From: a virus
Lineage: Duplodnaviria; Heunggongvirae; Uroviricota; Caudoviricetes
IMG/VR virus record: IMGVR_UViG_2778261453_000019
Reading direction: 5' to 3' (one strand)
DNA length: 19,266 nt
The notes below the pieces were generated by a model. That model was given only the letters and a program-made list of their open reading frames with translations, had not been told where the DNA came from and did no database searches. The position numbers and the translations under genes were made by a program. This document shows, one piece after another, positions 2,727-19,266 of the stretch; position 1 is the stretch's first letter, and every line of letters starts with the position of its first letter.

Positions 2727-2987
2727 TTAATTCTGAGGTAAAGGCAAACTCATCTGATTGTTTCCCCTGTGTGAAGCTGGCAGTTCATGCCACGGGATAC
2801 CTTCTGAAGAGTGAACGCCGGAGGCGTGTTTTGATGTGAATTTATGGAAAGCTTCCAGTGTTGAGAAGCATACGCCGCATTCCAGATTGTTACACTGGTA
2901 ATACTTTTGCCGCACGGTGTTTGAATCATTTTCCGGACGACTGGTGCGGATACGGGCAGATGCGCCACAAAGCGGACAACGGAACAT
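2727..2987 (-). CDS. ogr: Ogr/Delta-family zinc-finger late transcription activator
   Basis: 86-aa ORF MFRCPLCGASARIRTSR...YYQCNNLEC matches recalled P2 Ogr (MFHCPLCQHAAHARTSR...YHQCQNVNC) C-x2-C-x22-C-x4-C; strong SD AAGGGAGG. Confidence 0.85.
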   Translation of the reverse strand: MFRCPLCGASARIRTSRPENDSNTVRQKYYQCNNLECGVCFSTLEAFHKFTSKHASGVHSSEGIPWHELPASHRGNNQMSLPLPQN

Positions 2988-3071
2988 AGCGACCTCCCTT
3001 AACGTGGTGCTGCTACCATTCTAAGTTGTCCCAATTCAGATTCCAACTGACAGCCCTCCCTGAGTGAGGAG

Positions 3072-4142
3072 CTATCTATAGTCTTCCCATGAGTTTTCAT
3101 CGACACAAAATTCAATACCAGCATCCAGTCCATTTATGTGCAAATTAAACTCATCATTGATAAACTGGCCTTCGTCTATTTCAAAGAATAATTCTAGTTC
3201 TACTGTAAAATCCTTTTCCTCCTCCTCGTGATTAGATACGGTGTCAAAGGTATAAAATTTTCCATCCTCTTTGTCATAATAGCCGTTTGCGGTATCAGGT
3301 CCGCTGGCAGTGACATTAAAACTAACAGTAACATCAAAAGTAATTTGACAACTTTCGTCATCCAAATGAATTATTTTGGGTTCGAATTCGCTTATGTTCG
3401 TAATTTCAAAGCTATCAATCTCTGAGTCTTCCCATGTTGAAGAATTATAAGCTTCAGCAGTTTCTAATTCTTCCGTTAATTTTTGTATGATTTCTTCATT
3501 TTTGCTTTCTAAAAAACGTTCTATAAATCCAGTTCTTTCGTCATTGTGTTTGTTGTAATCATCTAGTAGTAAGTTTAGTGCTCCTATAATTATGAAATTA
3601 TCATTGTCTTCACAGTAACCTTTTAGGTCAGGGTCTTCTGAAACCACATAAATTTTTTCATTATCTCCTAGCGCGGAACGTATTGCTAAAAGAGTGAAGG
3701 CGTCTCGAAATTCGTTAGGTTTTTTCGCACTAAAGGGGCTTTTTTTATCAAAGTACATGTCTATAACCTCATTGAGGTCCACCTTCGACATATCTACAAT
3801 AGTTGTGTTTGAGTCCTCCATGAAACCATTAAATGCGCTTAATGCCTTTTCTTGAATGTCTGTTTCATTAATTTCACAAAATAGATTTTTAATATTGTCA
3901 TCTTCATATTCTTTGAGGATAACAGCCTTTCGTCGGAAATTGTTAATCCCTTTCAATGCTTCTTGTATATGCTCTATGATTTTTCGTTCAACTTCTTTAA
4001 CTACAATTGTTGTAGAAATATGCCTGAACTCATCATTTCTACATAGTTCTTCAAATGATTTTATAGTTTTTGAGTTGAAGTCCAGGTTTGCTTTTACAAA
4101 AAACTCAGTATCAATGAATACATTGCGGGTAACTAGAGACAT
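3072..4142 (-). CDS. AT-rich cargo protein of unknown function (356 aa); N-terminal domain with PIN-like acidic-residue pattern (tentative), highly acidic C-terminal domain; candidate defence/exclusion moron
   Basis: Long ORF with strong SD (AAAGGAG 8 nt upstream of ATG at 4142); visibly AT-rich versus flanking phage genes; inserted between D and ogr, which are adjacent in P2. Confidence 0.85.
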   Translation of the reverse strand: MSLVTRNVFIDTEFFVKANLDFNSKTIKSFEELCRNDEFRHISTTIVVKEVERKIIEHIQEALKGINNFRRKAVILKEYEDDNIKNLFCEINETDIQEKALSAFNGFMEDSNTTIVDMSKVDLNEVIDMYFDKKSPFSAKKPNEFRDAFTLLAIRSALGDNEKIYVVSEDPDLKGYCEDNDNFIIIGALNLLLDDYNKHNDERTGFIERFLESKNEEIIQKLTEELETAEAYNSSTWEDSEIDSFEITNISEFEPKIIHLDDESCQITFDVTVSFNVTASGPDTANGYYDKEDGKFYTFDTVSNHEEEEKDFTVELELFFEIDEGQFINDEFNLHINGLDAGIEFCVDENSWEDYR

Positions 4143-4314
4143 TTTCCAACTCCTTTTAATATATTAACCCAAATGAGGTAACATCATAAAAGATCACATA
4201 GTCACTTGTATTGGTATCTTGAGTCAAGAGAATATGATGGCGCTTACAATTTTTGTGACAAGGCTAGATGTCAGACTGTTAAGTGCTATAAGCGAGTTAA
4301 TATATTTAAGTTGC

Positions 4315-5415
4315 TCACTCTGTTTCCGCTATCCATTCCGGGATTTTTGCCTCAAGTTCAAGCTGCGTGGTAAAGCCGCTGTTATCAATGGTGTGCTCGG
4401 CTTTTGCAATAATCCAGTCCTGATTATCAATCTCGCTTTTAAATCCTGTTACCGTGCCATGCATTTCGGGGTAGAGTTCTGCACGACCACGTGCCAGCGT
4501 GATGGAGAATGATGCGGCTCCGCGTTGTAGCTGCTGCCACTTTGCCGCCGCTGCGCGTCTTGCTGCCTGTTCGTTCTGATAAGTCTTGCGTAACACAAAC
4601 ACGTTGCCTTCCGCACCTTCCATATAGTCACCTTCACGGCTGCTGCTTTTCTCCTTTTTCGGTTTGCGGCGTTTCACGCTGACTTTTTTCTTTTTCCCGT
4701 AATTAAGATCAAGCCAGTAAGCGCGTACCCCCGTATACGCTTCGCGGTCAGCAATGCGGAACTGATGGCGATCGCCACTGCTGCGCGTGATGGCGAACGA
4801 GGGCAACGGCTGGCCCTGTGCGTTCACGCCACCGCCTGGCATGATGAATAACAGATTACCGCTTTTTACCGTGGTGATTGCGCCCAGCATTTCCGCCATG
4901 CGCGTAAGGAAGGACATGTCGCTTTCTTCGGTCTGGTCGGCGTGGTCGATTTCAATATCCATCAGCATTTCGCTGATTTGTGGTTTCAGACCGTACCGAT
5001 GAGCGATGGCGGATACCACGCGCTCAACGGTCACATCATGCCAGGACACCTCACGTTTAACGTTAAATTCATCCCGAAAATCTGCGCTTCTGGCTGAAAC
5101 AGTCAGCCTGTCCGGCGGTCCTTCGTGAGCGATTTCATCAACAATGTAAGTGCCTTTTTCTGTCAGCGGTTCTCCTTTCCAGCCAATGAGAACCGTCAGG
5201 CGCGCGCCCCGTGGCGGTAGCTGCAACTGACCATCCGCATCATCCAGCGTGATGGTGAGCTGGTCCGCTTCAAATCCCCGGTTGTCGGTCAGTGACAGAC
5301 TCATCAGGCGCTCTGCCACGCCGGACAGCGTTTCCCCCTCCGCGAGAATATCAAAATCCGGCATTTTCACGGGGTCTGTGCTCTGTCTGAGCAATTGCAT
5401 GGTGGTGTCGGTCAT
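4315..5415 (-). CDS. D: P2 gpD-like tail protein (late control gene D)
   Basis: Family recognised from translation; start set at internal ATG 5415 (MTDTTMQ...) preceded by GGGAGGG SD rather than ORF-track start 5436. Confidence 0.85.
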   Translation of the reverse strand: MTDTTMQLLRQSTDPVKMPDFDILAEGETLSGVAERLMSLSLTDNRGFEADQLTITLDDADGQLQLPPRGARLTVLIGWKGEPLTEKGTYIVDEIAHEGPPDRLTVSARSADFRDEFNVKREVSWHDVTVERVVSAIAHRYGLKPQISEMLMDIEIDHADQTEESDMSFLTRMAEMLGAITTVKSGNLLFIMPGGGVNAQGQPLPSFAITRSSGDRHQFRIADREAYTGVRAYWLDLNYGKKKKVSVKRRKPKKEKSSSREGDYMEGAEGNVFVLRKTYQNEQAARRAAAAKWQQLQRGAASFSITLARGRAELYPEMHGTVTGFKSEIDNQDWIIAKAEHTIDNSGFTTQLELEAKIPEWIAETE

Positions 5416-5571
5416 CTTTCCCTCCCTGTGCGGCATGGTCGCATGTGCGTGCGGAGTGGGTTACTGCTTTTTGTTGTCGCCGTGGCGGGAGAACGGCGCA
5501 GGGGTGAGATTACGCGCGTGGTGGGTGATGATTGTTGCCGAATCATTTAACGGATACAAGGGGCTGAAGCT

Positions 5572-6756
5572 ATGAGTGAAACTCGTTTTCATGGTGCCCG
5601 TGTCACGGAAAGTACCGACCTGGTAACAGCGATTAATGATGTTGATTCCAGCGTTATCGGTATCGTGGCAACGGCGGATGATGCGGATGCGGAGCTGTTC
5701 CCGCTGAACAAGCCCACACTGCTGACCCGCGTCAATGACGTGCTGGGAAAATGCGGGACTACGGGGACGCTTTATCGTGCGCTTAAGGCTATCGCAGACC
5801 AGGTGAGCACAAAAGTGATCGTCGTTCGCGTGGCTGAACACAAAGAAGAAGACGGTAGGACGCAGGATCAACTGGTTATCGGTGGTTCTGAATCTGACGG
5901 CAGCTATACGGGGATGTATGCGCTGCTTGTTGCAGAGCAGGATGAAAGCATCGGATACCGTCCGCGTATTCTGGCCGCGCCGGAGCTGGACACGGAGGCG
6001 GTGACAAAATCCCTGTGCGTGATTGCGGGTAAACTGCGCGCGTTTGTGTATGCCTCATGTCATGACTGTAACACGATGGCTGAGGCAATTACCTACCGCC
6101 AGAAATTCAACGAACGTGAGGTGATGCTCTTATGGCCGGACTTCATCGCCTACAACCCGAAAAGTGGCAAAAACGAAACGTTCCCCGCGCCTGCCTATGC
6201 GTGCGGCCTTCGTGCGTACATTGACCATGAGCAGGGCTGGCACAAATCGCTGTCCAACGTTCCGGTTAAAAATGTGCTGGGGATGTCCAGGCATGTGTTC
6301 TGGTCGTTGCAGGCCGAAGACAGTGATGCCAACAGCCTCAACAACAAAGAAATCACGACCATTATTCGTCGCAACGGGTTCCGCTTCTGGGGCAACCGCA
6401 CACCGGAAACGAACGCCTACATCTTTGAGGTGTATACCCGAACCGCACAGGTGCTGGCTGATTCAATTGCGGAAGCGCAGTTTGAAACCATCGACAGTCC
6501 ACTGACGCCTGCGAACGTGAAAGATGTTATCAGTGCCATCAGGGCAAAACTGGATTCACTGGTTACTGCCGGGAAACTGATTGGGGCGTCGTGCTGGTAT
6601 GACGTGGTGGATAACGGCACCACGAATTTACGTCAGGGGCGCGTGCGTATTCGCTACAAATATACGCCTGTTCCCCCGCTGGAAGACATGGAGCTTTACC
6701 AGTCGTTTACTGATGAATTCTTTGGTCCCGCATTTGCGGTGCTGGGAGGTGCCTGA
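5572..6756 (+). CDS. FI: Contractile tail sheath protein (P2 gpFI-like)
   Basis: 394 aa (P2 FI ~396 aa); sequence family recognised; followed by tube gene with TGATG overlap. Confidence 0.9.
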   Translation: MSETRFHGARVTESTDLVTAINDVDSSVIGIVATADDADAELFPLNKPTLLTRVNDVLGKCGTTGTLYRALKAIADQVSTKVIVVRVAEHKEEDGRTQDQLVIGGSESDGSYTGMYALLVAEQDESIGYRPRILAAPELDTEAVTKSLCVIAGKLRAFVYASCHDCNTMAEAITYRQKFNEREVMLLWPDFIAYNPKSGKNETFPAPAYACGLRAYIDHEQGWHKSLSNVPVKNVLGMSRHVFWSLQAEDSDANSLNNKEITTIIRRNGFRFWGNRTPETNAYIFEVYTRTAQVLADSIAEAQFETIDSPLTPANVKDVISAIRAKLDSLVTAGKLIGASCWYDVVDNGTTNLRQGRVRIRYKYTPVPPLEDMELYQSFTDEFFGPAFAVLGGA

Positions 6757-7268
6757 TGGCTGTACCAAAACATCTTCGCTTTTTTACGCTGTTTGTGGAT
6801 GGTGAAAACGAAGTGGGTAAGGTGACGTCCGTCACTCTGCCTAAGCTGACGCGCAAAACCGACAGCTACCGGGGTGGTGGCATGATGGGTGCGGTAAGTA
6901 TTGATCTCGGTCTGGACGACTCCGCGCTTGATGCGAGCTTTGTCATGGGGGGCGCAGTTCGTGAGCTGTTCCTTAAGTATGGCGGCACGATTGACGGCAC
7001 GCTGCTGCGTTTTGCGGGTGAATACTACACCGATGCAGAAAGCGACTTGTATGAAGTCGAAATGCGCGGACGTGTGACGGAAATTGATATGGGGGAAGCC
7101 AAACAGGGCGAAGCCACATCACACACTTACGCCATTAAAAACACCTACTACAAGCTGAGCGTTAACGATCGCCCGTTGTGGGAGATTGACCTGCTGAACT
7201 TCATTTACCGGAAGGACGGCAAGGACATTGTGCCCGATCGCATCCGTTCCGCGCTTGGGCTTGGCTGA
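6756..7268 (+). CDS. FII: Tail tube protein (P2 gpFII-like)
   Basis: 170 aa, position after sheath gene; family recognised. Confidence 0.9.
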   Translation: MAVPKHLRFFTLFVDGENEVGKVTSVTLPKLTRKTDSYRGGGMMGAVSIDLGLDDSALDASFVMGGAVRELFLKYGGTIDGTLLRFAGEYYTDAESDLYEVEMRGRVTEIDMGEAKQGEATSHTYAIKNTYYKLSVNDRPLWEIDLLNFIYRKDGKDIVPDRIRSALGLG

Positions 7269-7322
7269 TAAGTAATATGCAGGCGGCGCAGTGCGTCGCC
7301 TCTGACTGAAAGGAGTTTCCTG

Positions 7323-7688
7323 ATGAAAGAGACGAAAAACATCGATACCGAAAACACGGTAGTTACTGACACTGTGAAAGAAACCAGTGAGCGTGGCGTA
7401 AAACTTACCCAACCAATTGAGCGAGGCGGCGAAAAAATCACGTATGTGGAGATCACCGGGGCTATTGAGCAGGCTGGATCTCTGCGAGATTTGTCGCTGT
7501 CTGATGTGCTGAATCTGAAAGCGGAATCCATGTTTACGCTGCTGTCACGCGTGACATCACCGCGACTGGATGAAGTGACGATCAAAAAAATGGCATCCCG
7601 TGACTTTATTCAGTTATGTGTGGTTGCCGTAAATTTTTTGAGCGGTGCGGACTCTGGCGGGAAGAACGAACAGGCGACGGAAGCCTGA
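7323..7688 (+). CDS. E: Tail assembly chaperone (P2 gpE-like), zero-frame product
   Basis: 121-aa ORF between tube and tape-measure genes with AAAGGAG SD; contains slippery TTTTTTG. Confidence 0.8.
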   Translation: MKETKNIDTENTVVTDTVKETSERGVKLTQPIERGGEKITYVEITGAIEQAGSLRDLSLSDVLNLKAESMFTLLSRVTSPRLDEVTIKKMASRDFIQLCVVAVNFLSGADSGGKNEQATEA

Positions 7689-7852
7689 TCACGGTTGTGT
7701 GCTTTGAGTACATAGAAGACTTTGTGGCGGATATTGCCGCCATTTTTAACTGGTCGCCCGCCGAAATCTTCATGATGACGCCCGGCGAAGTGGTTAGCTG
7801 GCGTGAGCGGGCGGCACTTCGCAGCGGGAATGCAGACAATGAAGACTCTTGA
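7323..7852 (+). CDS. Tail assembly chaperone E+E' fusion made by programmed -1 ribosomal frameshift at T TTT TTG (7634-7640)
   Basis: The -1 frame ORF (7616..7852) overlaps the E 3' end and is entered exactly at the TTTTTTG heptamer; conserved E/E' (lambda G/GT-like) architecture. Confidence 0.7.
7634..7640 (+). promoter_or_regulatory. Slippery heptamer TTTTTTG for -1 programmed frameshift
   Basis: Read directly; matches canonical P2 E/E' slippery sequence. Confidence 0.7.
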
Positions 7853-9266
7853 TATCCGGGTCGCTTTCAGCGCCGTTGACAGGCTGACCCGGCCTGCCGA
7901 AAACGCCCGCCGCCTGATGGGGCAGTTTGGTGACTCCATCCAGCGAACGCAGGGGGCGATCAAAAATCTCGAGCGTCAGGCGCGATCATTTGAGCGCGCC
8001 CGCGACGCTGTCAGTAAAGCGGATGCGGGCATCGTGAAAGCACGACGCCAGCTTAACGCCCTTAATCAGTTACAACGCACGGGTACAGTGCTCAGCGAAA
8101 AACAACAAAAGCTGATGCGGCAGTTAAGCACCCGGCTTGAACGCCTGAATGAATCGCGCACACGGGAAATTCAGAAAATGCGGGAGCTTGGCGGAGAGCT
8201 GAAACGCCACGGCATTTCCCTGACAGGCAGCGATAACACCATCCAGCAGGCCATCAGACGCACCGAACAGTACAACAACCAGCTTGAACGCGAACGGCAG
8301 GCGCTTGCGCGTGTAACGCGGGCGCGTGAGCGGTATTCGCGCGTGCAGGAAACCGCGGGAAAACTGAAAACAGGTGGTGCGCTGGCAATTGGTGCGGCAG
8401 CGGCTGGCGGCTATGCTGCCGGGCGTTTTTTGCAGCCTGCGATCGGGTTCGGGAAAGAGATGTCCCGCGTTCAGGCGCTGACGCGAATCGACAAAAACAG
8501 CCCGCAGTTTAAGGCGCTGCGTGAGCAGGCGTTAAAACTTGGCTCTGAAACGCAGTTCACCGCAGGCGATGCCGCCAGTGGGCAGGCATTTCTTGCAATG
8601 GCTGGCTTCACACCACAGACCATTCAGGCTGCGCTCCCTGGCGTACTGAGCATGGCAACGGCTGGCAGTATGGACCTCGGTGAGACGGCGGATATTGGCT
8701 CAAATATTCTGACGCAGTTCGGTCTTTCTGCTGACCAGATGGACCGGGTCGGCGACACACTCACCGCAGCGTTTACCCGTACCAACACTGACCTTCGCGC
8801 ACTGGGTGAAACCATGAAATATGCAGGTCCGGTGGCGGGTAAGCTGGTTGATGAGACGAAAAAACGTATTGGCCCCGGCGATATTGTCTTTAAGAACCTG
8901 CCCCGCGCACTTGCCGTTCGTGGGGAGTGGCAGGAGCGGAAGATTGCGCAGGTCAGTAAGCCTGCTTCCGCAATCAACATCACACCCGTGGTCCCGACTC
9001 CTCTGCCTCCGGCGCTGGTCCCTGTTGTTGCGGCCAGCTCCCGCCCGGTGGCGGAGGCCATACGATCGCCAGTGGCATCAGTTCCTGCAACTTCCCGTAA
9101 CCGGGAGCCTGTTGTCTCCGGATTTGGCGGTGAAATTCATGTTCATCTGCATAACGTTGTTACGCAGAATCCCCGCGAACTGGCGAAACTGGTCGGTGAA
9201 ATGGTCAGGGCAGAAATGGAACGGCGCGCCCGTGCCGGGCGTGGCAGTTTTTGCGATAAAGATTGA
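7839..9266 (+). CDS. T: Tail tape measure protein (P2 gpT-like), apparently shortened (~475 aa)
   Basis: Coiled-coil-like N-terminal region, Gly/Ala-rich hydrophobic segment, LGETMKYAGPVAG tape-measure core motif; ORF-track start 7803 (GTG), ATG at 7830 or 7839 more likely. Confidence 0.8.
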   Translation: MKTLDIRVAFSAVDRLTRPAENARRLMGQFGDSIQRTQGAIKNLERQARSFERARDAVSKADAGIVKARRQLNALNQLQRTGTVLSEKQQKLMRQLSTRLERLNESRTREIQKMRELGGELKRHGISLTGSDNTIQQAIRRTEQYNNQLERERQALARVTRARERYSRVQETAGKLKTGGALAIGAAAAGGYAAGRFLQPAIGFGKEMSRVQALTRIDKNSPQFKALREQALKLGSETQFTAGDAASGQAFLAMAGFTPQTIQAALPGVLSMATAGSMDLGETADIGSNILTQFGLSADQMDRVGDTLTAAFTRTNTDLRALGETMKYAGPVAGKLVDETKKRIGPGDIVFKNLPRALAVRGEWQERKIAQVSKPASAINITPVVPTPLPPALVPVVAASSRPVAEAIRSPVASVPATSRNREPVVSGFGGEIHVHLHNVVTQNPRELAKLVGEMVRAEMERRARAGRGSFCDKD

Positions 9267-9278
9267 GGAGTCATGGCC

Positions 9279-9767
9279 ATGATGATGATCTACGGCATGT
9301 TTGTTTTTGAGCTGCGCACATTGCCGCATCAGCAGTTACAGCAAAATAAAAGCTGGCGGCATGTGAAAAATGAACGCGTTAACCGTTCAGCAAGCTGGCA
9401 GTATATCGGTGCAGGTGATGACCGCATCGTTCTTTCTGGTGTGCTTTATCCTGAAATTACAGGTGGCGAAGTGTCGCTGTCTCTGCTGACCACGCAGGCG
9501 TATACAGGACGGCCCTGGCCTCTGATTGATGGCGTCGGGCAGATTTACGGCATGTATGTCCTGACCGAAACGAATACGACCCGTTCCGAGTTTGATCGCT
9601 ACGGTAAAGCGAAAAAGATAGAATTTTCACTGACTCTTGAACGCTGTGATGAGGATTTGCGGGAGCGCCTGCAATCCTCATCGTTCAGCGATATGTTGTC
9701 CGGCTTCAAAGATAAGGTGACATCATCCCTTAATAGCGCGGCCAGCTCAGTTAAGGGGCTGCTCTGA
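9279..9767 (+). CDS. U: Tail protein (P2 gpU-like)
   Basis: ~162 aa ORF directly after T; GAGGAG SD placed for ATG at 9279 (ORF track start 9273). Confidence 0.8.
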   Translation: MMMIYGMFVFELRTLPHQQLQQNKSWRHVKNERVNRSASWQYIGAGDDRIVLSGVLYPEITGGEVSLSLLTTQAYTGRPWPLIDGVGQIYGMYVLTETNTTRSEFDRYGKAKKIEFSLTLERCDEDLRERLQSSSFSDMLSGFKDKVTSSLNSAASSVKGLL

Positions 9768-9843
9768 TTTAACGTATGTCGCCAATTTCCTGATGAAGGT
9801 GACTGGCGACTTGCTGTTGTATGTCCTTCTCAGAAAATTGTTT

Positions 9844-9923: not shown

Positions 9924-10496
9924 GTGCTGTCTTACTTAATGGCAATTCACTTTGTTTTATTTGGGAACTCTACTAATTTAAAAAACTTCTGGAAATATGA
10001 AGTAATTCGGCGGAAACGTATGGATATCTGGAGGCTTTTAAGAGAGAAAAAACAGCGTAACCGGAATTTCCTTTTCTGGTGGCGGTTGGCTAACGAAATG
10101 TATATTAATGGTAATAAATTACATAAGAAAGCAGCCAAAAAGTTAAACAGTAAAATAATTAACAAATTTGGTTGTGAAATTGGATTGGGCGCAAATATTG
10201 GAAAAGGGTTAACAATTCCCCATCACACTGGAATTGTTGTTCATTTTGCTGTTGATGCTGGTGAAAATCTGGTGTTACGACAGAATACTACCATTGGACA
10301 GATAGATGGTGACATGCCTGGTTCAAGAGTAAAAATTGGTAGTAACGTTGATATCGGAGCTAATTGTTGCATCATTGGATTATCACGTAAAATTGGGGAT
10401 AATGTAAAAATAGGTGCAATGTCTTTTATAAATAAAGATATACCATCGAACTGCACATATATAACTAAAAAGAGCGGTGCTGTATTGTATAAATAG
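9924..10496 (+). CDS. Hexapeptide-repeat (left-handed beta-helix) acetyltransferase, serine O-acetyltransferase/CysE-like; AT-rich moron
   Basis: Repeating [LIV]-G-x-x-x-x hexapeptides (IGLGANIGKG, VKIGSNVDIGANCCIIG, IGDNVKIGA) and HHTGIVV resembling CysE core; GTG at 9924 preceded by AAGGAG (9912-9917); ORF track start 9891. Confidence 0.8.
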   Translation: MLSYLMAIHFVLFGNSTNLKNFWKYEVIRRKRMDIWRLLREKKQRNRNFLFWWRLANEMYINGNKLHKKAAKKLNSKIINKFGCEIGLGANIGKGLTIPHHTGIVVHFAVDAGENLVLRQNTTIGQIDGDMPGSRVKIGSNVDIGANCCIIGLSRKIGDNVKIGAMSFINKDIPSNCTYITKKSGAVLYK

Positions 10497-10503
10497 AGTA
10501 CAT

Positions 10504-10541
10504 AAAGCCATCGATATTTCTATCGATGGCTTTTTCTTTTT
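10504..10541. terminator. Strong rho-independent, probably bidirectional terminator (AAAGCCATCGATA-TTTC-TATCGATGGCTTT then TTTTCTTTTT)
   Basis: Perfect 13-bp stem, 4-nt loop, T-tract on plus strand and A-tract upstream; lies between convergent acetyltransferase and G. Confidence 0.8.
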
Positions 10542-11118
10542 ATTGTGGGGCGACAGGCCACTCAATATCTGCTGCTACTGTTGTATCAACACGATGCAAC
10601 AATACCCGATATGTCTTCCATGCAGCCAGTAACGATGTCTCTTCCTCCGTCGCAATATCTAAATCTATAGCATCCTGAAGTGGTGCAATATGCTCACTGG
10701 CTACCTGCATCAGGCTGTTTTTTGTTTCTTCCGCCTCCCTTATCCGAAACAGTTTTTCTGCTTCTGCATCTTTCACCCAGGATGTGCCGTTCCACTTCTG
10801 ATACTCTCCATACGGCGACAACCAGGTAACATTTTCCGGTAATGGACCGAGTTCAGAAATAAATAACGAGTCCCCTGATGCCACGTCATAAACCGTTTTA
10901 CCCCGATGGTCTTCAACGAGATGCCACGATGCCTCATCACTGTTGAAAACGGCCACGAAGCCAGCCGGAATATCTGGCGGGGCAATATCGGTACTGTTTG
11001 CAGGCAGACCTGTATGAGGTGGAATGTATGCATCACCTTCACCAATAAACTCATTGGTTCCGGTCAGTAGATTATAAATTTTTATGGTCCGTGATTGTTC
11101 ACTCATTCTGAATGTCAT
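10540..11118 (-). CDS. G: Tail fibre assembly chaperone (P2 gpG / Tfa-like)
   Basis: 192 aa immediately downstream of tail fibre gene with overlapping start/stop; family recognised. Confidence 0.8.
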
Positions 11119-13250
11119 TATGCAAGCCTCACAATATAGTTAAATGCGATGTTTTTTACGGTGTTTTCTGCGTTCCCCGTAGCATTAACGGTGATGGTGT
11201 GTCCGTGGGGACCAATAATGACAGAATGGGCATGAGCACCAATGCCGATAGTGTGGTTATGGGCACCGATATATACATTGTGAGCATGCCCTCCTGCGCT
11301 CGACGTGGTACCAGTACCTAACGCAGCGTTATAACCGGCTGATACACCATTCCCCGCGCCAGTGTGACCAACAGGTATATTGTGTGAATGAGCTCCTGCG
11401 CTATTTGTGGTTTTTGTGCCGTAATCAAATGAACTGGTCGTTTTAGTACCGTAATCAAACGACGATGTGGTTTTCGTCCCCAAATCAGTACTGGATGCGC
11501 TGGCGCTGTGGGTGTGCGATTTAATGCCGTCCTGTTCCTGAGACAGTACGGCACGACCACTGGCAGGTTTGCCCTTGATAGTCCAGCCACGCATATCAGG
11601 GATCACGCCTGACGGATAAGCGACTGCAAGTTTCGGGTATGCAGATTTGTCAAAAGTCTGCCCCTGCATCAGGGCATAACCAGACGGAACGGTATCTGAT
11701 GGCCACGGAATCGGTGCACCGACTGGATAAAACTTTTCAGGAGGATGAGCCGAGGTGTAAAGCTGCGCCCACGGCGACCAGTTTGCGTCGGTCGTATCCC
11801 GTCGTGAACGAATAAATGCCGGAGCATGAGCACCGCTTATACCACTCCAGCCGATGAGTAATTCGCCTTCGCCAACGGCTGTCATCCCTTTCAGGTGAAT
11901 GATATTTCCATACGCTGTTGGATATCCGTTGTTATACGCCTCGTATAACTCCAGACCTGTGGCCCCCTGCATATTATCTGTCAGGGCGGTCACCCGACCT
12001 TTTGAAGCCAGATTAACTGACGATACTGCTGTCCCATCTGACGGTAACGCCCCGATCTCTGATGCTGTTGGCTTATTCCTGGAGTTATAGTCCCTTCGCC
12101 AGCCAGGAGCATAAGCATCACCATGATTAATATAAGTAAATTGAGCATTAGGGATGCCTTCACCGCTGGATGTACTCGGTGTGGTAATGCGTATGGTCAT
12201 TGCGCCGCGGGTGCCAATAACTTCCACAACAGCACCTGCAAGACAAATATTTCCGCAACCTGTATCTGTAATGACCTTATTACTTGCATAAGCCCATGAG
12301 CCTTTGCACATCCAGTAAGGATGGTTAAATGCCCCCTGACTCTCTAGCCAAAAAATCAACTGCGCAGTTGTCCATGCTTCACTATCTCCACCAATATTCA
12401 GCTCTGCACTATATGCACGGCAGGCACCGATATTTTTCGTAAAGGTGTCTTTGTCAGAGATATCCTCACCATTCTTAGCTTTCTGCAGACGTTTTTCAGC
12501 ATTGTCATAGGCAGCTTTTACTGCATTTGATGTTGCCGCCAGCGTTTCAGACGTGCTGTTGGTTGCACTGCTGAGCTGGACTATCCCTTTTTGTGCCGTA
12601 GTGGCGTCCTGAGCGGTATATTTTCCGTTAGCCATGTCATACGCTGCCTTAACCGCTTTCGGCGTTGCAGCCAGCGTTTCAGAATCGCTGTTAGTGGCGC
12701 TACTGAGTTGAACAAAGCCTTTTGCGGTCAGCGAGGCGTCCGGGTGACGTCGTGACTGTTCATGTTCTTTCAGTTTGTCATTCACGTAATCCACTGTGGC
12801 CATAACCATGGTGTTATCCACGGTAAGCGCCACGGTGGCAGTGCTGGATACGGTCAGAATGGTGCGAAATGTTTGTGCACGTCCGGATCCTTCGGCAACG
12901 GTTGGCTTGTAACTTTCGGCAGTATTGCCCACCGCGATCAAATCGCCGTGCTCATCAAATACACCAATTTCCCGGATCCAGAATCCGCCCGTTTCAGGAG
13001 GAATAACCAGCTCCGCAATAATGCGGTTCTGATGTGTTGCGTCCAGGATGACGCGATTAACAGTATGTCGCCACACCTCATGCACCAGACGGGTCTGCTT
13101 ACTGTCTGGTGTGGGCAACGTGCCGCCACCGTCGCCCACGGCCATGTGAGTCAGGCGGACAGGATTACCATCTGGCGCGGCTGCCTGAGCTAATTTTTTG
13201 GCACCAGTATCAGTGATAATGGTTTTAAATTTTCGTGTTGTGGTACTCAT
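11118..13250 (-). CDS. H: Tail fibre protein (P2 gpH-like) with C-terminal His-x-His-rich tip domain
   Basis: 710 aa; N-terminal region typical of P2 H; C-terminus carries HSH/HAH/HNH/HAH/HGH motifs and a 10-aa tandem repeat. Confidence 0.9.
11401..11486 (-). repeat. Three imperfect 30-bp tandem repeats inside the tail fibre gene, encoding [10 protein letters not shown] / [10 protein letters not shown] / [10 protein letters not shown]
   Basis: Verified by translating the minus strand in the H frame. Confidence 0.8.
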
Positions 13251-13252
13251 GC

Positions 13253-13783
13253 TTAATCGTCCGGATAAATGGTAATGACTTCACCGTCGTAAGTTGCTGC
13301 CGCCGCGAAAATATCCCCCGGGATCTCCTGAATGATATTCAGCCCTGTCATGTGGCGGCTGACCGGGCGGGCATCAGCAATCAACCGCTCCATTTCCAGA
13401 TACATTTCCTCCGTCACGCCACTGTCCAGCGTGCCGACTTCAACGGTAAATGTTCCCGGTTCTCCGCCGAACTCCCACCACTCAGACACACGAATGAGGT
13501 ATCCCAGCGGCTCAATGGCCCGGCGCAGTGCGCTGATGGTCCCTTTGTGTCGGTGTATCAGCCATGCGTCACGAATCACCTGTCGCTTTGTCTCTTCCGG
13601 CCAGTTGCGATCCCAGCGGTCAACGGAAAATGCCCAGGCGAGATAAGGCAGCAGGTGCACCGGGCAGGTGTCCGGCGACCACAGCGTGTTGAGGTCTACC
13701 GGAATGTCTGTAATGCGTGTTCCGACGGCTTCGGCATAACGCATGAAATTGCTGGCTGATGGTGGTAACAACGAATTACTCAT
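13253..13783 (-). CDS. I: Baseplate protein (P2 gpI-like)
   Basis: Start set at ATG 13783 (MSNSLLPP...) with AAGGTGG SD; ORF track start 13816 is GTG. Confidence 0.8.
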
Positions 13784-14672
13784 TGCGCCCACCTTCGCTG
13801 ATGGTGAATGACTCACAGCGCGCCGCCTGTATGTCGCTGATGGCCATATTCTGTGTGGGTTCGATTATCTCCACGCGTTGCACACCGTGCACATGCAGTG
13901 CGGCAGCAATGGCGGACAACGCCACGTCCTGACCGATAAGCCCCTGCTCAGCCAGCCACTTCCTGAACGACGATTCCGCCGCGGCCAGAATAGGTTCGGA
14001 TTCCGGGCCGGGGTAAAAGTACAGTTTTGCATTCAGCCGCCATGTCACGATTCTGGCACTCTGTACGGTCAGGCGGTCGGCCACCGGGCGGGTATCCTCT
14101 GCATTCAGAACGGCGCGAACGGTATTAAGCAACGCCTCCGTTGCTGTGCCGTCGCCCTCAGTGGACAGTATGGAAACCGTCACGTTGGCCGGAGACGGGC
14201 TGATGGCCCGCGCATCGCGTACCAGACCGCTGGCGCTGCGTGCAAAATACTCGTATGCACCTGAAGGGCCAGCAACACTCAGACCGTCATATGCCCGTTG
14301 CGCCCGTAGTCTCAGCGAGGTGTCACTTTCCATCACTGCGTCGGTGGTATCCGTTGCCGGAGTGATGGTCAGGCGTTTTGTGTTCATATTGCCCGCGAGG
14401 TTGTCCAGGTCTGTCCCGGCGCTGTGGCTTAACATGCAGGCGCGTGCCCCCTCATTGATCCGCTGGCGTAACAGCATTTCGCGAAACGCTGTTGTCTGGG
14501 CGATAACGTTCAGGGGTTCCGATTCCAGCTCCAGCGCGGCGGAGACGGCTTCACGCTGTTCGGCGGGATAAGCCGCAATCATCATGGCCTTTGTGTCAGC
14601 CAGAATTGCCTCAAACTCAGGCTCCGCGATGATGGCGGGTTCCGGTAACTGGGAAAGGTCAACAGCAGGCAT
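13776..14672 (-). CDS. J: Baseplate assembly protein (P2 gpJ-like)
   Basis: 298 aa, position between W and I; family recognised. Confidence 0.85.
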   Translation of the reverse strand: MPAVDLSQLPEPAIIAEPEFEAILADTKAMMIAAYPAEQREAVSAALELESEPLNVIAQTTAFREMLLRQRINEGARACMLSHSAGTDLDNLAGNMNTKRLTITPATDTTDAVMESDTSLRLRAQRAYDGLSVAGPSGAYEYFARSASGLVRDARAISPSPANVTVSILSTEGDGTATEALLNTVRAVLNAEDTRPVADRLTVQSARIVTWRLNAKLYFYPGPESEPILAAAESSFRKWLAEQGLIGQDVALSAIAAALHVHGVQRVEIIEPTQNMAISDIQAARCESFTISEGGRNE

Positions 14673-14675
14673 GAT

Positions 14676-15026
14676 TTACTCTCTCAGCGTGATGGTTAAT
14701 TCAACATTCTGCATGGTCTGCATGACAGTGCCCGACAGCGTCACCCCGGCGCGGCCTCCTGCCTTCCAGACAACGTCGATAGCGTCCAGGGCAATGCGGG
14801 GTTCCCATCGTGTCAGCGCAATCACGGCAGCACTCATGCATTGCAGACGCGTGGTGTTATTCATGGGTTCGTCAATCAAATCAGGCACAAGGCTGCCATA
14901 TTCCCGTCGCATAACCCGGCTTGCCAGCGGGGTGGTCAGGATGTCCCTGACTGACTGTTTCAGGTGCTCCATATCGTTCAGGTTTCCCGTTCCGTCCGGG
15001 TTCATACCTGTGTAGCGGGTTGTCAC
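14676..15026 (-). CDS. W: Baseplate wedge protein (P2 gpW / gp25-like)
   Basis: 116 aa, position between V and J. Confidence 0.8.
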   Translation of the reverse strand: MTTRYTGMNPDGTGNLNDMEHLKQSVRDILTTPLASRVMRREYGSLVPDLIDEPMNNTTRLQCMSAAVIALTRWEPRIALDAIDVVWKAGGRAGVTLSGTVMQTMQNVELTITLRE

Positions 15027-15604
15027 TGCGGGCCTCCTGTCGAATCGCTGCCACCTTTAACGCCACCGTGTTTATGCGTATGCACTGTGATGCCGTTTGA
15101 GGTGAAATTGCCGCCGCTGTGCGTGATATTGCCGCTCATCTTTCCCCCTTTTGTGACGTCAAGCGTCGCCGTTCTCAGAAGGTCTGTGCATTCCACGACG
15201 GGCGTATCCAGTGTCACGCTGACGGATGCCTGCAGGGTGGCTGTTTTCATGCCGCTGGCGCTCAGTGCGCCTGCGTCCGCGTCGTAGCGGAACACCGCGC
15301 CATCCGGCGCGCTGACCACGATTTCTTTCAGGCTTTTGCCGGGGGCCGGACTGGCATCACTCCACAGGCTGCCAATTATCATGGCGGTTTCCGGGTTGCC
15401 GCCAATGCAGGCAATTACCACCTGTTCGCCTGGTGATGGCGGCAGCCACACATTGAAGGCTCCCGCGCGCGTGGTGTTCCAGCGCAGCCAGCCTGTTTCC
15501 AGTTCGCCGCTGCGAACGCGCACGCGCCAGGACTTCTCGTCAACTTCAGAGATGATCCCGGTGCGGATGATATTGCTCAGCAGTCGCATGAGTTCTGCGC
15601 TCAC
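15023..15604 (-). CDS. V: Baseplate central spike protein (P2 gpV-like)
   Basis: 193 aa, overlapping starts/stops with S and W. Confidence 0.8.
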   Translation of the reverse strand: MSAELMRLLSNIIRTGIISEVDEKSWRVRVRSGELETGWLRWNTTRAGAFNVWLPPSPGEQVVIACIGGNPETAMIIGSLWSDASPAPGKSLKEIVVSAPDGAVFRYDADAGALSASGMKTATLQASVSVTLDTPVVECTDLLRTATLDVTKGGKMSGNITHSGGNFTSNGITVHTHKHGGVKGGSDSTGGPQ

Positions 15605-16245
15605 CGTACAGCCTCCGCAATCCGGCCCAGCACCGTGTTATAAATCAGGCGTTCATCTGCCTGACTGATGCCCAACAGCTCACGTACCGGGTAATCGGTG
15701 AAAATGCCCGGCGCAACCTGATCGCGCTCACCGAACTGATGAACGCGGGCAATACGTGCGGCCACGCCGCTGTAACCCACCGTCACACCGGAAGCATCTG
15801 CACGGGCTTTCAGGTAGCGGGCGGTGCGCAGTTTTACGAACATGGGGACGCGCTTTGTGCTGTCCTGGTTGATGCGCCGGGTGCGTATTTCCAGAAAACG
15901 GTCGATGTCATCCCGGTAAAACGTGCGGATATTGTTTTTATCCTCATCCCACCCGGTAATGGTTCGCCCGTATTTCCCCGTGTCGTGATGCCAGTTTTTC
16001 AGCGTGCGTGCTTCGTTATTCCAGATAAAGCGAATGCGTTCCTGTATCCGGGTTACGCGGCGTCTGCGTGGTGTCCATGCGGTCCCGTCCGGCGCTTTCT
16101 GTGACCGGATGCGCGCCTGCTGGGCGCGGCGTAAATCCTGTGCCAGCTTTCTGGCGATGTTATTGATGGCCTGCTGATTCAGGCTGTCGCGGATGGCCTC
16201 AAAGGTTTCATCCACGCGGGTGAATGCCTTATCCATCGCTTTCAC
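15601..16245 (-). CDS. Tail completion / virion morphogenesis protein (P2 gpS-like position)
   Basis: 214 aa between R and V; assignment by synteny and general resemblance. Confidence 0.65.
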   Translation of the reverse strand: MKAMDKAFTRVDETFEAIRDSLNQQAINNIARKLAQDLRRAQQARIRSQKAPDGTAWTPRRRRVTRIQERIRFIWNNEARTLKNWHHDTGKYGRTITGWDEDKNNIRTFYRDDIDRFLEIRTRRINQDSTKRVPMFVKLRTARYLKARADASGVTVGYSGVAARIARVHQFGERDQVAPGIFTDYPVRELLGISQADERLIYNTVLGRIAEAVR

Positions 16246-16696
16246 CCCACGTCACATCCTGGAATACATGCGACCAGCCGCCTTCGGAAGATGGCAGGCG
16301 GGGTTTTGGCTCCGGCAGGTGTTCTGCCTGCGGTGTGCCCTGACTGCTGCGCGTGATGCGAACGCGTTCCCGCAGGGGGAGCGTAAACAGGAGATCGGCG
16401 CTGTCATCGTCATTGATAACGGCGGAAAATTTGATGTCCTGATTACGCTCAGGGTTGAGCAACAACTGTGGCTGATTTTCGGATAACCACGCCAGCAGCG
16501 GCAGCGTGAGGTCGTCCAGCTCCCCGGCGTAATCCATGACAAACATCACCATCTGATAGCGGTAAACAAACGATGGGGTTTCTCCGGTCGTTTCAATGTT
16601 GCCGCTCTCCACGAAAATGGTGAATTTTTCCGGGTTGGCCTGACACCATCGGCATGAACGGGTCATGGCTTCACGCAGGGAATCAGTTTTCAGCAT
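16229..16696 (-). CDS. Tail completion protein (P2 gpR-like)
   Basis: 155 aa (P2 R ~155 aa), synteny after lysis genes. Confidence 0.7.
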   Translation of the reverse strand: MLKTDSLREAMTRSCRWCQANPEKFTIFVESGNIETTGETPSFVYRYQMVMFVMDYAGELDDLTLPLLAWLSENQPQLLLNPERNQDIKFSAVINDDDSADLLFTLPLRERVRITRSSQGTPQAEHLPEPKPRLPSSEGGWSHVFQDVTWGESDG

Positions 16697-16973
16697 GGTT
16701 GTTGTCCTCGTTGTTCAGTCGTTGCAGCCTGCGCTGTTCCAGTAATTCAATGGCCCGTTTATCCGCGTTACAGGTTTCCAGTGCATCCAGAAGGCGGTCG
16801 CCCCATATACCGAGATTTCCCCATGTGGGAGGGTCAGGGAAGGGGGGCGGCGTTACCGGAATGGTCAGCGTCTGCGGTATAAGCCGGACTGACGGCGCTG
16901 GCCGTGGCGCGTTCTGCGTGCCTGCGCAACCTGTCAGTAAAACGAGCGTCAGGCAAAGCGTGGGCGCATTCAT
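16683..16973 (-). CDS. Outer-membrane spanin lipoprotein (LysC/Rz1-like), partly embedded in LysB in another frame
   Basis: MNAPTLCLTLVLLTGC lipobox signal, Pro-rich mature region; overlaps the LysB 3' end. Confidence 0.65.
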   Translation of the reverse strand: MNAPTLCLTLVLLTGCAGTQNAPRPAPSVRLIPQTLTIPVTPPPFPDPPTWGNLGIWGDRLLDALETCNADKRAIELLEQRRLQRLNNEDNNHAEN

Positions 16974-17241
16974 CTTTTGCAATATCGTTGCGTAGCTGTT
17001 CACGTCTGGCCTCTCCGTCCTGATTTCGCTGTTGATTTTCCACGCGGAGTTGCGCCAGCACCTGCTGCATATCCTGTACCCCGGCACTGATGATATTCAG
17101 TGTGTCGACGGTACTTTTCAGGGTGCTGGCCTGTGCTTCGTTTCTGGCGTTCTCCCGGCCAAGCGACCATGACAGACGCATGGATGTTCCCCATGCGGCA
17201 ATCAGAAGGAAAGCGACACCCAGCGTGGGCCAGAGCTTCAT
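16834..17241 (-). CDS. Inner-membrane spanin (LysB/Rz-like)
   Basis: Start at ATG 17241 (MKLWPTLGVAFLLIAAWG... N-terminal TM helix) just after endolysin stop; coiled-coil-like remainder. Confidence 0.7.
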   Translation of the reverse strand: MKLWPTLGVAFLLIAAWGTSMRLSWSLGRENARNEAQASTLKSTVDTLNIISAGVQDMQQVLAQLRVENQQRNQDGEARREQLRNDIAKDECAHALPDARFTDRLRRHAERATASAVSPAYTADADHSGNAAPLP

Positions 17242-17630
17242 GCCGGATAGGCTCCGTGTGGTAACTGAAAATGTGGTCCGTCTTTCAGGGTCTTCCAGTC
17301 GCCGCCCCATTCCACCGGAATATTCAGTTCCCGGCTGGCCTGTCTGAATGCTGCTGCGATTTTTTCGTACAGCGGCCATTCCCATGACACCTGGCTGCCG
17401 ATATAAGCCACAACATCCACGGCATGTCCCGTAAGGTGGCGGCTGTTCATGGTCTGGCTCTTACCTGTGGCCACAAGTTGCTTCTGGCGGTAACGGCTGC
17501 GCAACCCTTCGGTGATACCAAAATCCACTTCCGAAATTTCCAGTGCCCGTCGGGTCACTTTCACCAGATCAGGATTTACGCCCTGCAAATTCTTTTCGCT
17601 CCGGCTGCTGAATTTAAATGTGTTGCTCAT
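17238..17630 (-). CDS. Endolysin, peptidase M15-type (L-alanyl-D-glutamate / D-Ala-D-Ala peptidase family)
   Basis: 130 aa with SRHLTGHAVDV metal-binding-type motif; follows holin with ATGA overlap. Confidence 0.75.
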   Translation of the reverse strand: MSNTFKFSSRSEKNLQGVNPDLVKVTRRALEISEVDFGITEGLRSRYRQKQLVATGKSQTMNSRHLTGHAVDVVAYIGSQVSWEWPLYEKIAAAFRQASRELNIPVEWGGDWKTLKDGPHFQLPHGAYPA

Positions 17631-17950
17631 TCGTCCTTCTCCTTCACCCTGCGATTAAAGGCCGCAATAACCTTGTCGCGTGCTTTCTCTGCACCCATAA
17701 AACCGATTGATGCGCCGATAAACGTCACGGCATCTTCAGGAAACCCGAAGAAGCGCAACGACCCGGCCACGGCCATGGCAAGAACGCCGCACGCCAGCGA
17801 TCCCGTTACGGTCTGAACCAGTGTTCGTCCGTCATAAAGACTCATCAGCGCGGAAATGCTGACCGCCGCGCCTACTGCATACACCGTTGGCAGGTGGTCA
17901 AAGAGCCACGCAATAACCTGCTCTGTGATCCCTGTTTGAATGGTGCTCAC
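17627..17950 (-). CDS. Holin (P2 gpY-like position), GTG start
   Basis: ~107 aa with 2-3 hydrophobic helices and charged C-terminus; GGGGGAG SD before GTG at 17950. Confidence 0.65.
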   Translation of the reverse strand: MSTIQTGITEQVIAWLFDHLPTVYAVGAAVSISALMSLYDGRTLVQTVTGSLACGVLAMAVAGSLRFFGFPEDAVTFIGASIGFMGAEKARDKVIAAFNRRVKEKDE

Positions 17951-17952
17951 TG

Positions 17953-18153
17953 CTACTCCCCCCACAACTGAATCATTTCTCGTTTCTTCTTCTCCGGCTC
18001 CGGCATCTCCACTTCCTGCCCGGCGTCCAGAAATACCTGCTGACAGAGTCCGGGGTTGGCATCCAGCACCTTTTCGGTGACGCCCTGCGTCGTGCCGTAG
18101 TACCGGAAACAGAGCGAATCCACGGTGTCGCCTTCCAGTGCCTTCACTTTCAT
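17953..18153 (-). CDS. X: Tail protein X (P2 gpX-like, LysM-like)
   Basis: 66 aa MKVKALEGDTVDSLCFRYYG...LWGE resembling recalled P2 X (MKTFALQGDTLDAICVRYYG...LWE). Confidence 0.8.
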   Translation of the reverse strand: MKVKALEGDTVDSLCFRYYGTTQGVTEKVLDANPGLCQQVFLDAGQEVEMPEPEKKKREMIQLWGE

Positions 18154-18374
18154 CAGCACAACTCCGCAAAGATTCGCGGGCGACACAGAATGTCAGAGAT
18201 GGCCCAGCTCACATCGCGCCACAAATCCGATGTCTGTATATCCAGTGCGTCCGCCCGGCGGTCGCCCTTGTCCGTTGTGTCCGCATCGCGGTAACGCTCC
18301 AGAATCAGGGCGCGTGTGGCGGTATAAAAGCGCGTGCGTAAGGTATTTGACAAAAAATCGGTAGCGGTGGCCAC
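18153..18374 (-). pseudogene. C-terminal fragment of head completion gene (P2 gpL-like); N-terminus deleted
   Basis: Open frame upstream of X with TGATG overlap as in P2 L/X; overlaps the integrase 5' end, no head genes beyond. Confidence 0.45.
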
Positions 18375-19266
18375 TGAACGCTACATCATGGCGAACGCTG
18401 AAAAGCGGGAATATATACAGGGCTACCGTGATCGTCGAACGCTAAATGATTTGCTTGAGTTGTGGTGGATGTATCACGGCCAGCACAGGCGTAAGGCGGA
18501 AGAAGACCGAAAACAACTGCGCAACATAATCAATGAGCTTGGCGCTGATATGCAGGCTGTGGATCTTGATAAGCTGAAAATTATCGCGTGGCGTTCTCAA
18601 AAGATAGCTGAAGGATTGAAACCGTCATCTGCTAACAGGTACATGAATCGGTTATCCGGAATGTTTACCGTGCTGAAAAAAATAGGTCTTTGGGATGCAG
18701 AACATCCAGTAAGGGGAATTTCTATTCTTTATGTATCTCCACGAGAAATGGCGTTCCTGTCACAGAAGGAAGTGGCGCTATTGCTCGATACACTGGAGGG
18801 CGACTACTGGCGTGTTGCGCTTTTGTGTTTAAGCACAGGGGCGCGCTGGAGTGAAGCTTGTAAGCTTCGTGGTGAACAGATAGTTCATAACCGTGTAACG
18901 TTTCTTGAAACCAAAAATGGCCGGAAGAGAACAGTGCCAATTTCGCAGGCAGTTTGTGAGGCGATCAAAACCAGAGAAACAGGCGGCTTGTTTGAGGTGA
19001 AGTACCGGGAATTCTGCCTGGCGCTGAAAAGAGTTAAGCCCGATTTACCAAAAGGCCAGGCTGCACATGTGCTGCGGCATACGTTCGCCAGCCATTTTGT
19101 GATGAACGGAGGAAACATTATTGCGCTTCAGAAGATTCTTGGTCACGCAACCATTCAGCAAACAATGGCATATGCGCATTTTGCACCGGATTACCTGCAG
19201 GATGCGGTGGCCCTTAATCCGCTGAAAGGTGGCGTAAGTGTCCACGCAGTGTCCACGGGGGATTAA
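18334..19266 (+). CDS. int: P2-type tyrosine integrase, N-terminally truncated (arm-binding region missing); catalytic domain intact
   Basis: 310 aa aligning to recalled P2 Int from RRKFDKKSEAV onward; H-x-x-R box and catalytic Tyr (MAYAHFAP) present; in-frame stop at 18325-18327 just upstream of GTG start. Confidence 0.85.
   Translation: MRKVFDKKSVAVATERYIMANAEKREYIQGYRDRRTLNDLLELWWMYHGQHRRKAEEDRKQLRNIINELGADMQAVDLDKLKIIAWRSQKIAEGLKPSSANRYMNRLSGMFTVLKKIGLWDAEHPVRGISILYVSPREMAFLSQKEVALLLDTLEGDYWRVALLCLSTGARWSEACKLRGEQIVHNRVTFLETKNGRKRTVPISQAVCEAIKTRETGGLFEVKYREFCLALKRVKPDLPKGQAAHVLRHTFASHFVMNGGNIIALQKILGHATIQQTMAYAHFAPDYLQDAVALNPLKGGVSVHAVSTGD

Follow-up and report, generated by a model that had tools for sequence, protein, structure and literature searches.

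The window analysed here, a stretch of 19,266 nucleotides entered as IMG/VR virus record IMGVR_UViG_2778261453_000019, raises the question whether a P2-like prophage made up of tail, baseplate, fibre and lysis genes is a tailocin, i.e. a set of genes for headless contractile particles, or the remains of a phage in decay. It is identical to contig NOCO01000002.1 of Escherichia coli assembly GCA_002549675.1, from which the data on its flanks were taken. In a preliminary description, made from the sequence alone, the locus was regarded as a tailocin-like remnant. As far as the gene list is concerned this view holds, since the list matches those of P2-derived R-type clusters; the loss of the O/P activator site and of the regulators, and the restriction of the locus to one clone, speak against a working tailocin. 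Overall, the locus appears to be best described as a recent, clone-restricted and grounded P88-like prophage under neutral decay, which is tailocin-like in content only (probability about 0.85).

Gene content was established by comparing the annotated proteins of an intact-looking relative in strain 94_0962 (L002) with the window by tblastn, and families were assigned by Pfam; PHROG and PADLOC were also used. Further loci in the comparison are P88_4B11 (L001), the locus of the source contig (L007), and ten independent loci of P88-like arrangement (L011-L020). Positions of all features are collected in Table 1.

Identity of the prophage and origin of its deletions

The element is placed with the P88-like phages (Xuanwuvirus, Peduoviridae) by 96.4% megablast identity to NC_049391 over 67% of the window, and its late region has 96-97% nucleotide identity to that of Xuanwuvirus P88_4B11. 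Prophages at the same flk site were found by megablast in 22 E. coli genomes with at least 80% coverage and about 97% identity. With P88_4B11 and the flk-pdxB prophages the window shares the late region, gene order and strands, integrase (99.9%), and attachment (att) region. It differs from P88_4B11 in that about 15.6 kb (M through C, with parts of L and int) and 1380 bp of T are missing, between U and G an acetyltransferase gene stands where P88_4B11 has the invertase with alternative fibre cassettes, and a gene for a PIN_12 protein lies between ogr and D.

The prophage is integrated in the 5' end of pdxB, since the 20-bp att core AAAATCCTTGTTGATGAAAA is found both at the left boundary and past int at the start of pdxB, 183-202 bp beyond the end of the window (L007 11116-11135). 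No tRNA gene was detected in the window by a tRNA scan; the att site is pdxB and not a tRNA gene. To the right of int, the source contig continues into attR and then pdxB, usg, truA, dedA, and accD; therefore, the missing genes are not due to the window edge. The prophage start had been put at 2727, which has to be corrected to the att core at 1098, so that the com/methyltransferase pair and hok (1226-2535) are also included. The start of pdxB has been replaced by the phage, so that the gene now has an upstream region derived from the phage and is longer by 7 N-terminal residues (LSETEKGL-KILVDEN...; window 1098-1117, L007 11092-11135), and a 14-codon dead copy of the original start remains at attL.

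Neither Pfam nor tblastn against the annotated relative found genes for capsid, terminase, portal, replication, partition, C or cox in the window. The preliminary description was correct in reporting the absence of the capsid genes (Q, P, O, N, M and most of L), of replication genes and of C and cox, and equally in its list of what remains, namely ogr, a contractile tail and baseplate, a fibre with its chaperone, and a full lysis cassette. Relative to L002, the products of ogr, D, FI, FII, E, E', U, G, H, I, J, W, V, S, R and X, as well as LysC, LysB, the M15 endolysin and the holin, are full length. All 16 P2-type tail genes are open, with T shortened in frame to 475 amino acids (aa). The element is att-flanked at its integration site and is devoid of excision, replication and packaging functions (int cut at its 5' end; cox, rep, terminase and capsid missing), as is typical of a cryptic prophage. 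By its gene content, it is a deletion derivative of a P88-like phage and would give no viable phage.

Both sides of the deletion junction align to P88_4B11. Window 12505-18328 corresponds to L001 24744-30567, and window 18327-19266 to L001 9090-10029, where int is 99.9% identical and its coding sequence starts at 9025. The two segments meet at an AAA microhomology, at which codon ~104 of L is fused to nucleotide 66 of int (junction sequence GCGGTATAAAAGCGCGTGCGTAAGG). Since the L side and the int side each align to the same phage and are joined at AAA, a single deletion is indicated, and the head, packaging and early region was, as judged from this alignment, lost in one illegitimate-recombination event. 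The deleted span of about 15.6 kb on the phage map agrees with the spacing of both halves in complete prophages, for example in strain M19. In comparison with a complete P88-like genome, M, N, O, P, Q, cos, the partition (par) and replication (rep) genes, cox and C are lost, and L and int are cut short. In the course of events proposed here, this one deletion, from inside L to nucleotide 66 of int, would have removed the head, packaging and early genes and left the tail, fibre, lysis, ogr and cargo genes behind. Excision would then be impossible as cox is gone and int is both truncated at its 5' end and promoterless, and replication and packaging would be impossible as well.

The L/int junction was contiguous in none of 5426 complete RefSeq E. 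coli genomes. The exact truncated integrase (310 aa) was found on 61 contigs, and in every one of the 24 contigs read, which come from independent assemblies, X lies 181 bp from the truncated int, i.e. the junction is the same. The host flanks of the junction carriers differ from those of the GCA_002549675.1 strain by 1-4 single nucleotide polymorphisms (SNPs) per 10 kb; when one recombination patch is set aside, the remnants differ by 3 SNPs per 10 kb. The shared junction and the near-identical host flanks argue that the deletion arose once, in one young E. coli clone. A search for a near-identical intact parent prophage returned relatives that are at best 97-98% identical and mosaic; therefore, the lesions are not datable against a parent.

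Loss of tail genes has already begun within this clone. The L009 type (2 contigs) lacks 4.9 kb from H to R, which corresponds to window 11445-16366, and T has been shortened in the GCA_002549675.1 strain as described below. A frameshift of H in L008 was discounted as a further lesion, being a 1-bp deletion in a C5 run of an assembly whose host flank likewise contains indels, and thus probably a sequencing error. The many intact long open reading frames had been attributed to either a recent origin or selection. A recent origin agrees with the finding of one clone, at most 4 SNPs per 10 kb of flank, and no carrier among the 5426 complete genomes, whereas nothing points to selection for particle production, sister strains having further tail-gene deletions. 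The loss of tail genes in a very young clone argues for neutral decay over selection, and conservation at a fixed locus under purifying selection is not what was found. The ratio of nonsynonymous to synonymous substitution rates (dN/dS) among junction carriers is without power because there are only 3 SNPs per 10 kb outside the patch.

The patch itself, at 10226-10894, contains 23 of the 26 SNPs that separate the window from sister strains, clustered in 0.7 kb at the 3' ends of the acetyltransferase gene and G. The sisters' allele resembles that of other P88-like prophages. The patch is present in the GCA_002549675.1 strain and not in sisters with the same deletion; therefore, it represents a gene conversion received after the prophage was already defective.

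The short tape measure noted in the preliminary description is real. T encodes 935 aa in all 12 relatives examined, and the exact 475-aa form is on 2-3 contigs only. The missing 1380 bp (460 codons, residues ~337-796) were removed in frame between 10-bp repeats, GGTAAGCTGG, of which a single copy is kept at 8838-8847. An independent Logan assembly of SRR3977270 shows exactly the same deletion, which is therefore no misassembly. A second slippage deletion between the repeats would thus have halved the tape measure in the GCA_002549675.1 strain, and tails, if made there, would be roughly half length. Sister strains with the 935-aa protein (for example GCA_023101865.1 or GCA_000938995.1) and with the 475-aa protein could serve as a convenient natural pair for studying tail-length determination, if expression were forced.

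Late promoters and predicted expression

For the late genes of P2 to be expressed, Ogr must bind around position -55 of four promoters. According to the curated P2 record, one activator site serves the divergent pO and pP promoters, and the O operon consists of O, N, M, L, X, Y, K, lysA, lysB, R, and S. The P88-like relative is the same as P2 in having one activator site common to the divergent O and P operons. A strict TGT-N12-ACA scan for P2 late promoters gave three matches, none of them at an expected position; therefore, the textbook consensus is unfit for the boxes of this phage, and it was replaced by a 26-nt motif built from the intergenic regions D/FI and O/P. The intact relative L002 has two strong boxes only, D/FI with 1 mismatch and O/P with 0 mismatches. 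In the window the D/FI box has 0 mismatches and the other matches have 3 or 4, at a background of about 11 matches with 4 or fewer mismatches in shuffled sequence. By this motif, the D/FI box is the only clear late-promoter box left in the window. The copy at O/P falls inside the deleted 15.6-kb segment, a loss that had been overlooked in the preliminary description.

The minus-strand array of 13 genes, X, holin, endolysin, LysB/C, R, S, V, W, J, I, H and G, is joined by overlaps or by gaps of 3 nt or less. P2 has a separate pV behind a terminator and orf30, whereas in the window S and V are contiguous, no terminator, orf30 or pV region of the P2 style lies between them, and no distinct PV box was found: upstream of V there is only a weak TGT-N12-AGG at 15660-15677, which the derived motif did not recover. 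Only antisense int precedes the L remnant, and sigma-70-like sites occur there no more often than by chance (2 found, 2.3 expected). With the O/P box deleted and no real gaps within the array, the 13 genes appear to have lost their upstream late promoter. The lysis reading frames are intact, yet the O/P activator site that drives the lysis genes in P2 is gone, and motif scans found no clear replacement. Removal of the shared site would leave X, the holin, the endolysin, the spanins, R, and S without a P2-type driver; with V-W-J-I-H-G fused to the X-S genes, the entire array would be silent, and a clear Ogr box would be kept by FI-U and perhaps D only.

No inducible regulator is left, and ogr is the one remaining regulator of the late genes, LexA-type control having been sought by gene content only. 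Dedicated stress- or SOS-responsive regulation is missing with C, cox and the early region, and the Com regulator belongs to the cargo methyltransferase pair. A candidate promoter does precede ogr (Table 1). The Pogr promoter of P2 reportedly needs an unidentified early function, and late transcription in P2 is said to need phage replication; the deletion has removed both from the window. It is predicted that, cargo genes excepted, the prophage is probably not transcribed, and particles would not be produced.

Several observations weigh against a silent, decaying prophage. Every tail and lysis reading frame in the GCA_002549675.1 strain is intact save for the in-frame deletion in T, and about 19 of the 24 sister contigs are without a second lesion in the right half of the remnant, which is the part examined; therefore, function is not dismissible on coding capacity. 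In-frame tape-measure deletions in other phages, such as those in gpH of lambda, reportedly still yield assembled, shorter tails. The proposed promoter loss rests on P2 annotation and motif matching. The derived motif recognised a PV box in no intact relative either, and it may miss real P88-type late promoters inside coding sequence. Matches on the correct strand consist of a partial box in lysB (17149-17174, minus) and a chance-level TGT-N12 match (18685-18704). The partial box, TGTCATGGTCGCTTGGCCGGGAGAAC, has 14 of 19 positions as in the PF box, including GGGAGAAC, and is without the TGTTGT half. L002 has it conserved as well, and it might act as a weak internal promoter for late expression of lysC-R-S or be due to chance. 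The caution about functionality that had been expressed in the preliminary description is justified.

Alternative explanations

Among the alternatives, retention of the element for its cargo survives best. According to this explanation, the PIN_12 gene, the com-controlled methyltransferase, hok, the acetyltransferase and the phage-supplied 5' end of pdxB are what is kept, and the tail genes hitch-hike until they decay. The cargo genes lie in known P2-like variable slots and are identical or near-identical to the copies of intact prophages, and pdxB now depends on a phage-derived start region. There are reports of defective P2-like prophages in which defence genes are retained, and the element fits this known category, that of defective P2-like prophages keeping cargo genes: as in those of Enterobacteria, mobility is lost, cargo and defence genes are nearly unchanged, and there is recombination with other elements. 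In a survey of such prophages, primase was, of the core genes, the one most frequently reduced to a pseudogene; compared with the surveyed prophages, the window has a single clean deletion of the early region and head module, and an unusually tidy tail-plus-lysis block. However, the PIN_12 protein has no shown defence function and no PADLOC match, and the clone is too young for retention to signal selection. Retention for cargo is therefore regarded as possible but rather doubtful.

Another scheme suggests that the remnant is a silent reservoir which works in trans. Ogr of an incoming or co-resident P2-like phage or Delta of a P4-like satellite would activate the remaining late promoters, and either tail and fibre parts would be supplied or exchanged through recombination or phenotypic mixing, or the half-length tape measure would poison the tails of an invader. 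In its favour are the intact Ogr-type box upstream of FI-U, a proposal in the literature that defective P2-like elements exchange DNA with functional ones, and the 0.7-kb patch of 23 SNPs in the acetyltransferase gene and G, acquired after the deletion and not seen in sisters. However, the patch shows the remnant as a recipient and not as a donor of DNA, there is no direct evidence of expression, and the idea of tail poisoning is pure inference. We consider a reservoir in trans to be unlikely.

A functional, domesticated R-type tailocin would require that Ogr switches on the tail and lysis genes and that headless contractile particles are released which kill competing E. coli. The gene list is in its favour: the contractile tail, baseplate and fibre set is complete, the lysis cassette and an activator are present, and capsid, packaging and replication genes are absent, just as R2 pyocin of Pseudomonas aeruginosa and dickeyocin P2D1 of Dickeya dadantii combine a headless contractile tail set and a lysis cassette with no replication or packaging genes. 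A P2-derived tailocin has been documented experimentally in Dickeya, and the majority of sister contigs are free of a second lesion. However, the deletion has taken away the O/P activator site for X, the lysis cassette, R and S, and no promoter is conspicuous as a replacement. By gene content, inducible control, SOS-linked or otherwise, is missing as well, the locus is confined to a single clone absent from the complete genomes, and secondary deletions have hit T in its own strain and H-R in a sister.

R-type tailocins are conserved across strains or species, and their particles and killing have been demonstrated. They are inducible, by mitomycin C or, for pyocins, through PrtN/PrtR. Unlike them, the locus in the window is restricted to one clone and lacks an inducible regulator; the promoter region for its lysis and baseplate genes is gone, and it is accumulating deletions. 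A functional tailocin is thus highly improbable. The same low estimate applies to a tailocin born in one step, in which contractile particles would still be made with Ogr or Delta, supplied from the remnant's own sigma-70-like ogr promoter or in trans by a co-resident P2-like phage or P4-like satellite. Were this the case, the particles would be full length in the sisters and about half length here, and they would kill competitors or poison superinfecting P2-like tails.

The weakest alternative, that an intact prophage was cut by the window edge or that the L/int and T junctions are misassembled, arises because the int stop codon coincides with the end of the window, so that the right end cannot be judged from the window alone, and is practically nil given a source contig that runs from int into attR and pdxB, a junction found in 24 of 24 contigs read, and a T deletion recovered in the Logan assembly.

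The decaying P88-like prophage is, as it stands, one more defective member of the P2 family in E. coli and of little consequence. Its modest value is that of a dated example in which one illegitimate-recombination event was enough to produce a gene set like that of a tailocin. The deletion alone was insufficient for domestication, because the same event removed the promoter and the regulators.

Gene order, cargo slots and feature positions

In the preliminary description, an inversion was counted against function. The same opposition of strands, FI-U against D/ogr and V-G, is seen in P88_4B11, L002 and all ten further loci (L011-L020), and the order is the genus-typical one, with FI-FII-E-T-U divergent from D-ogr and convergent with V-W-J-I-H-G. 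The arrangement is native to Xuanwuvirus and not a rearrangement; therefore, it is no argument against function. In P2, FI-D are on the V-G strand. Shared with P2 are the 16 tail genes, an Ogr-type activator, the E/E' frameshift site (slippery heptamer TTTTTTG, conserved at 7634-7640), and a lysis cassette between X and R; in the window the endolysin is an M15 peptidase, and lysA is absent.

Table 1. Positions of genes and sites in the 19,266-nucleotide window, with the observations on which each assignment rests.
Feature	Position	Strand	Basis or remarks
Host gene flk	1-996		Left end of window
attL core AAAATCCTTGTTGATGAAAA	1098-1117	none	20-bp direct repeat; original 5' end of pdxB; left prophage boundary
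N6/N4 DNA methyltransferase	1226-2017	minus	Pfam N6_N4_Mtase 3.4e-33; PADLOC MTase_II 1.6e-63; annotated in L002
Com-type zinc-ribbon translational regulator	1962-2159	minus	PHROG gpCom 2e-17; annotated in L002; overlaps methyltransferase
Hok/Gef toxin gene	2398-2535	minus	100% identical to annotated L002 Hok/Gef
ogr, Ogr/Delta zinc-finger late activator, 86 aa, CX2C-X24-CX4C	2727-2987	minus	Pfam Ogr_Delta 5.1e-14; translation
Candidate ogr promoter, TTGGAA-17-TAGAAT	3018-3046	minus	sigma-70-like; consensus match from sequence
PIN_12-domain protein, 356 aa	3072-4142	minus	Pfam PIN_12 1.3e-20; GC 35%; variable ogr/D slot
gpD, tail/baseplate hub, 366-373 aa, intact	4315-5436	minus	Pfam Phage_GPD 1.5e-17; single open frame
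Ogr-type activator box (PF), TTTTGTTGT-N12-AGAAC	5469-5494	plus	D/FI divergent intergenic region; core identical to O/P box of intact relative
FI, sheath	5572-6756	plus	97.7% identical to L002 protein, full length; Pfam Phage_sheath_1
FII, tube	6756-7268	plus	100% identical to L002 protein, full length; Pfam Phage_tube
E, tail chaperone	7323-7688	plus	PHROG tail protein 2.3e-35; Pfam Phage_P2_GpE (E and E+E')
E+E', tail chaperone (-1 frame)	7323-7852	plus	As for E
T, tape measure, 475 aa	7839-9266	plus	tblastn: residues 1-336 and 794-935 of 935-aa protein
gpU, tail protein	9279-9767	plus	98.8% identical, full length; Pfam Phage_P2_GpU
Hexapeptide-repeat acetyltransferase, 190 aa	9924-10496	plus	L002 annotation serine acetyltransferase; Pfam Hexapep below cut-off; phrog_2154 4.9e-87
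G, fibre assembly chaperone	10540-11118	minus	Full length vs L002
H, tail fibre, 710 aa	11118-13250	minus	Full length vs L002
I, J, W, V (spike), baseplate	13253-15604	minus	Full length, 97.7-99.4% to L002; Pfam Tail_P2_I, Baseplate_J, GPW_gp25, Phage_base_V
S, tail completion	15601-16245	minus	Pfam Phage_tail_S 8.3e-28; full length
R, tail completion	16229-16696	minus	Pfam P2_Phage_GpR; full length
Lysis cassette and X block	16683-18153	minus	Full length, 97-100% to L002
LysB spanin	16834-17241	minus	LysC o-spanin embedded in it, lipobox LLTGC; Pfam LysC, DUF2570
M15 endolysin	17238-17630	minus	Pfam Peptidase_M15_4
Holin	17627-17950	minus	Pfam Phage_holin_3_1
X, tail protein	17953-18153	minus	Pfam Phage_tail_X
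L 3' remnant, head-completion gene, 61 codons	18156-18338	minus	tblastn: gpL residues 104-164 only
Deletion junction, AAA microhomology	18326-18328	none	Both sides aligned to P88_4B11
int, without first 65 nt (24 aa as reading frame) and upstream C/Pc region	18334-19266	plus	Pfam Int_N, Phage_integrase

The com/methyltransferase pair (1226-2159) has a layout like that of com/mom in Mu, with a different enzyme. The PIN_12 protein had no match in PADLOC or in PHROG. In public assemblies the identical protein is indexed in 715 blocks and, in the loci shown, always belongs to P88-like prophages at the flk site; its gene is a candidate uncharacterised anti-phage cargo gene. A ParA-family gene occupies the ogr/D slot in relatives instead. 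In otherwise complete-looking P88-like prophages, D is cut to 266 aa beside this slot (L002 18454-19254, L012 and L015); the neighbour of the cut gene is the ParA-family gene in L002 and a PIN_12 gene in L012 and L015. An essential tail gene may therefore occasionally be damaged when cargo is swapped at the ogr/D hotspot.

The slot between U and G, at the position of Z/fun in P2, is a second cargo hotspot. It is occupied elsewhere by the DNA invertase and alternative fibre cassettes (P88_4B11) or by a family-9 glycosyltransferase (mouse strains, M19 and others). The adjoining H and G have Pfam matches to Phage_tail_fib (7.7e-54), Phage_fiber_2, Collar, and Caudo_TAP (1e-40). The 3' part of G (10577-10775, minus) also gives an Rfam match to IS009 (RF02111) with 182 bits, well over the gathering score, which overlaps the recombination patch and may reflect conserved tfa-gene sequence rather than a real RNA.

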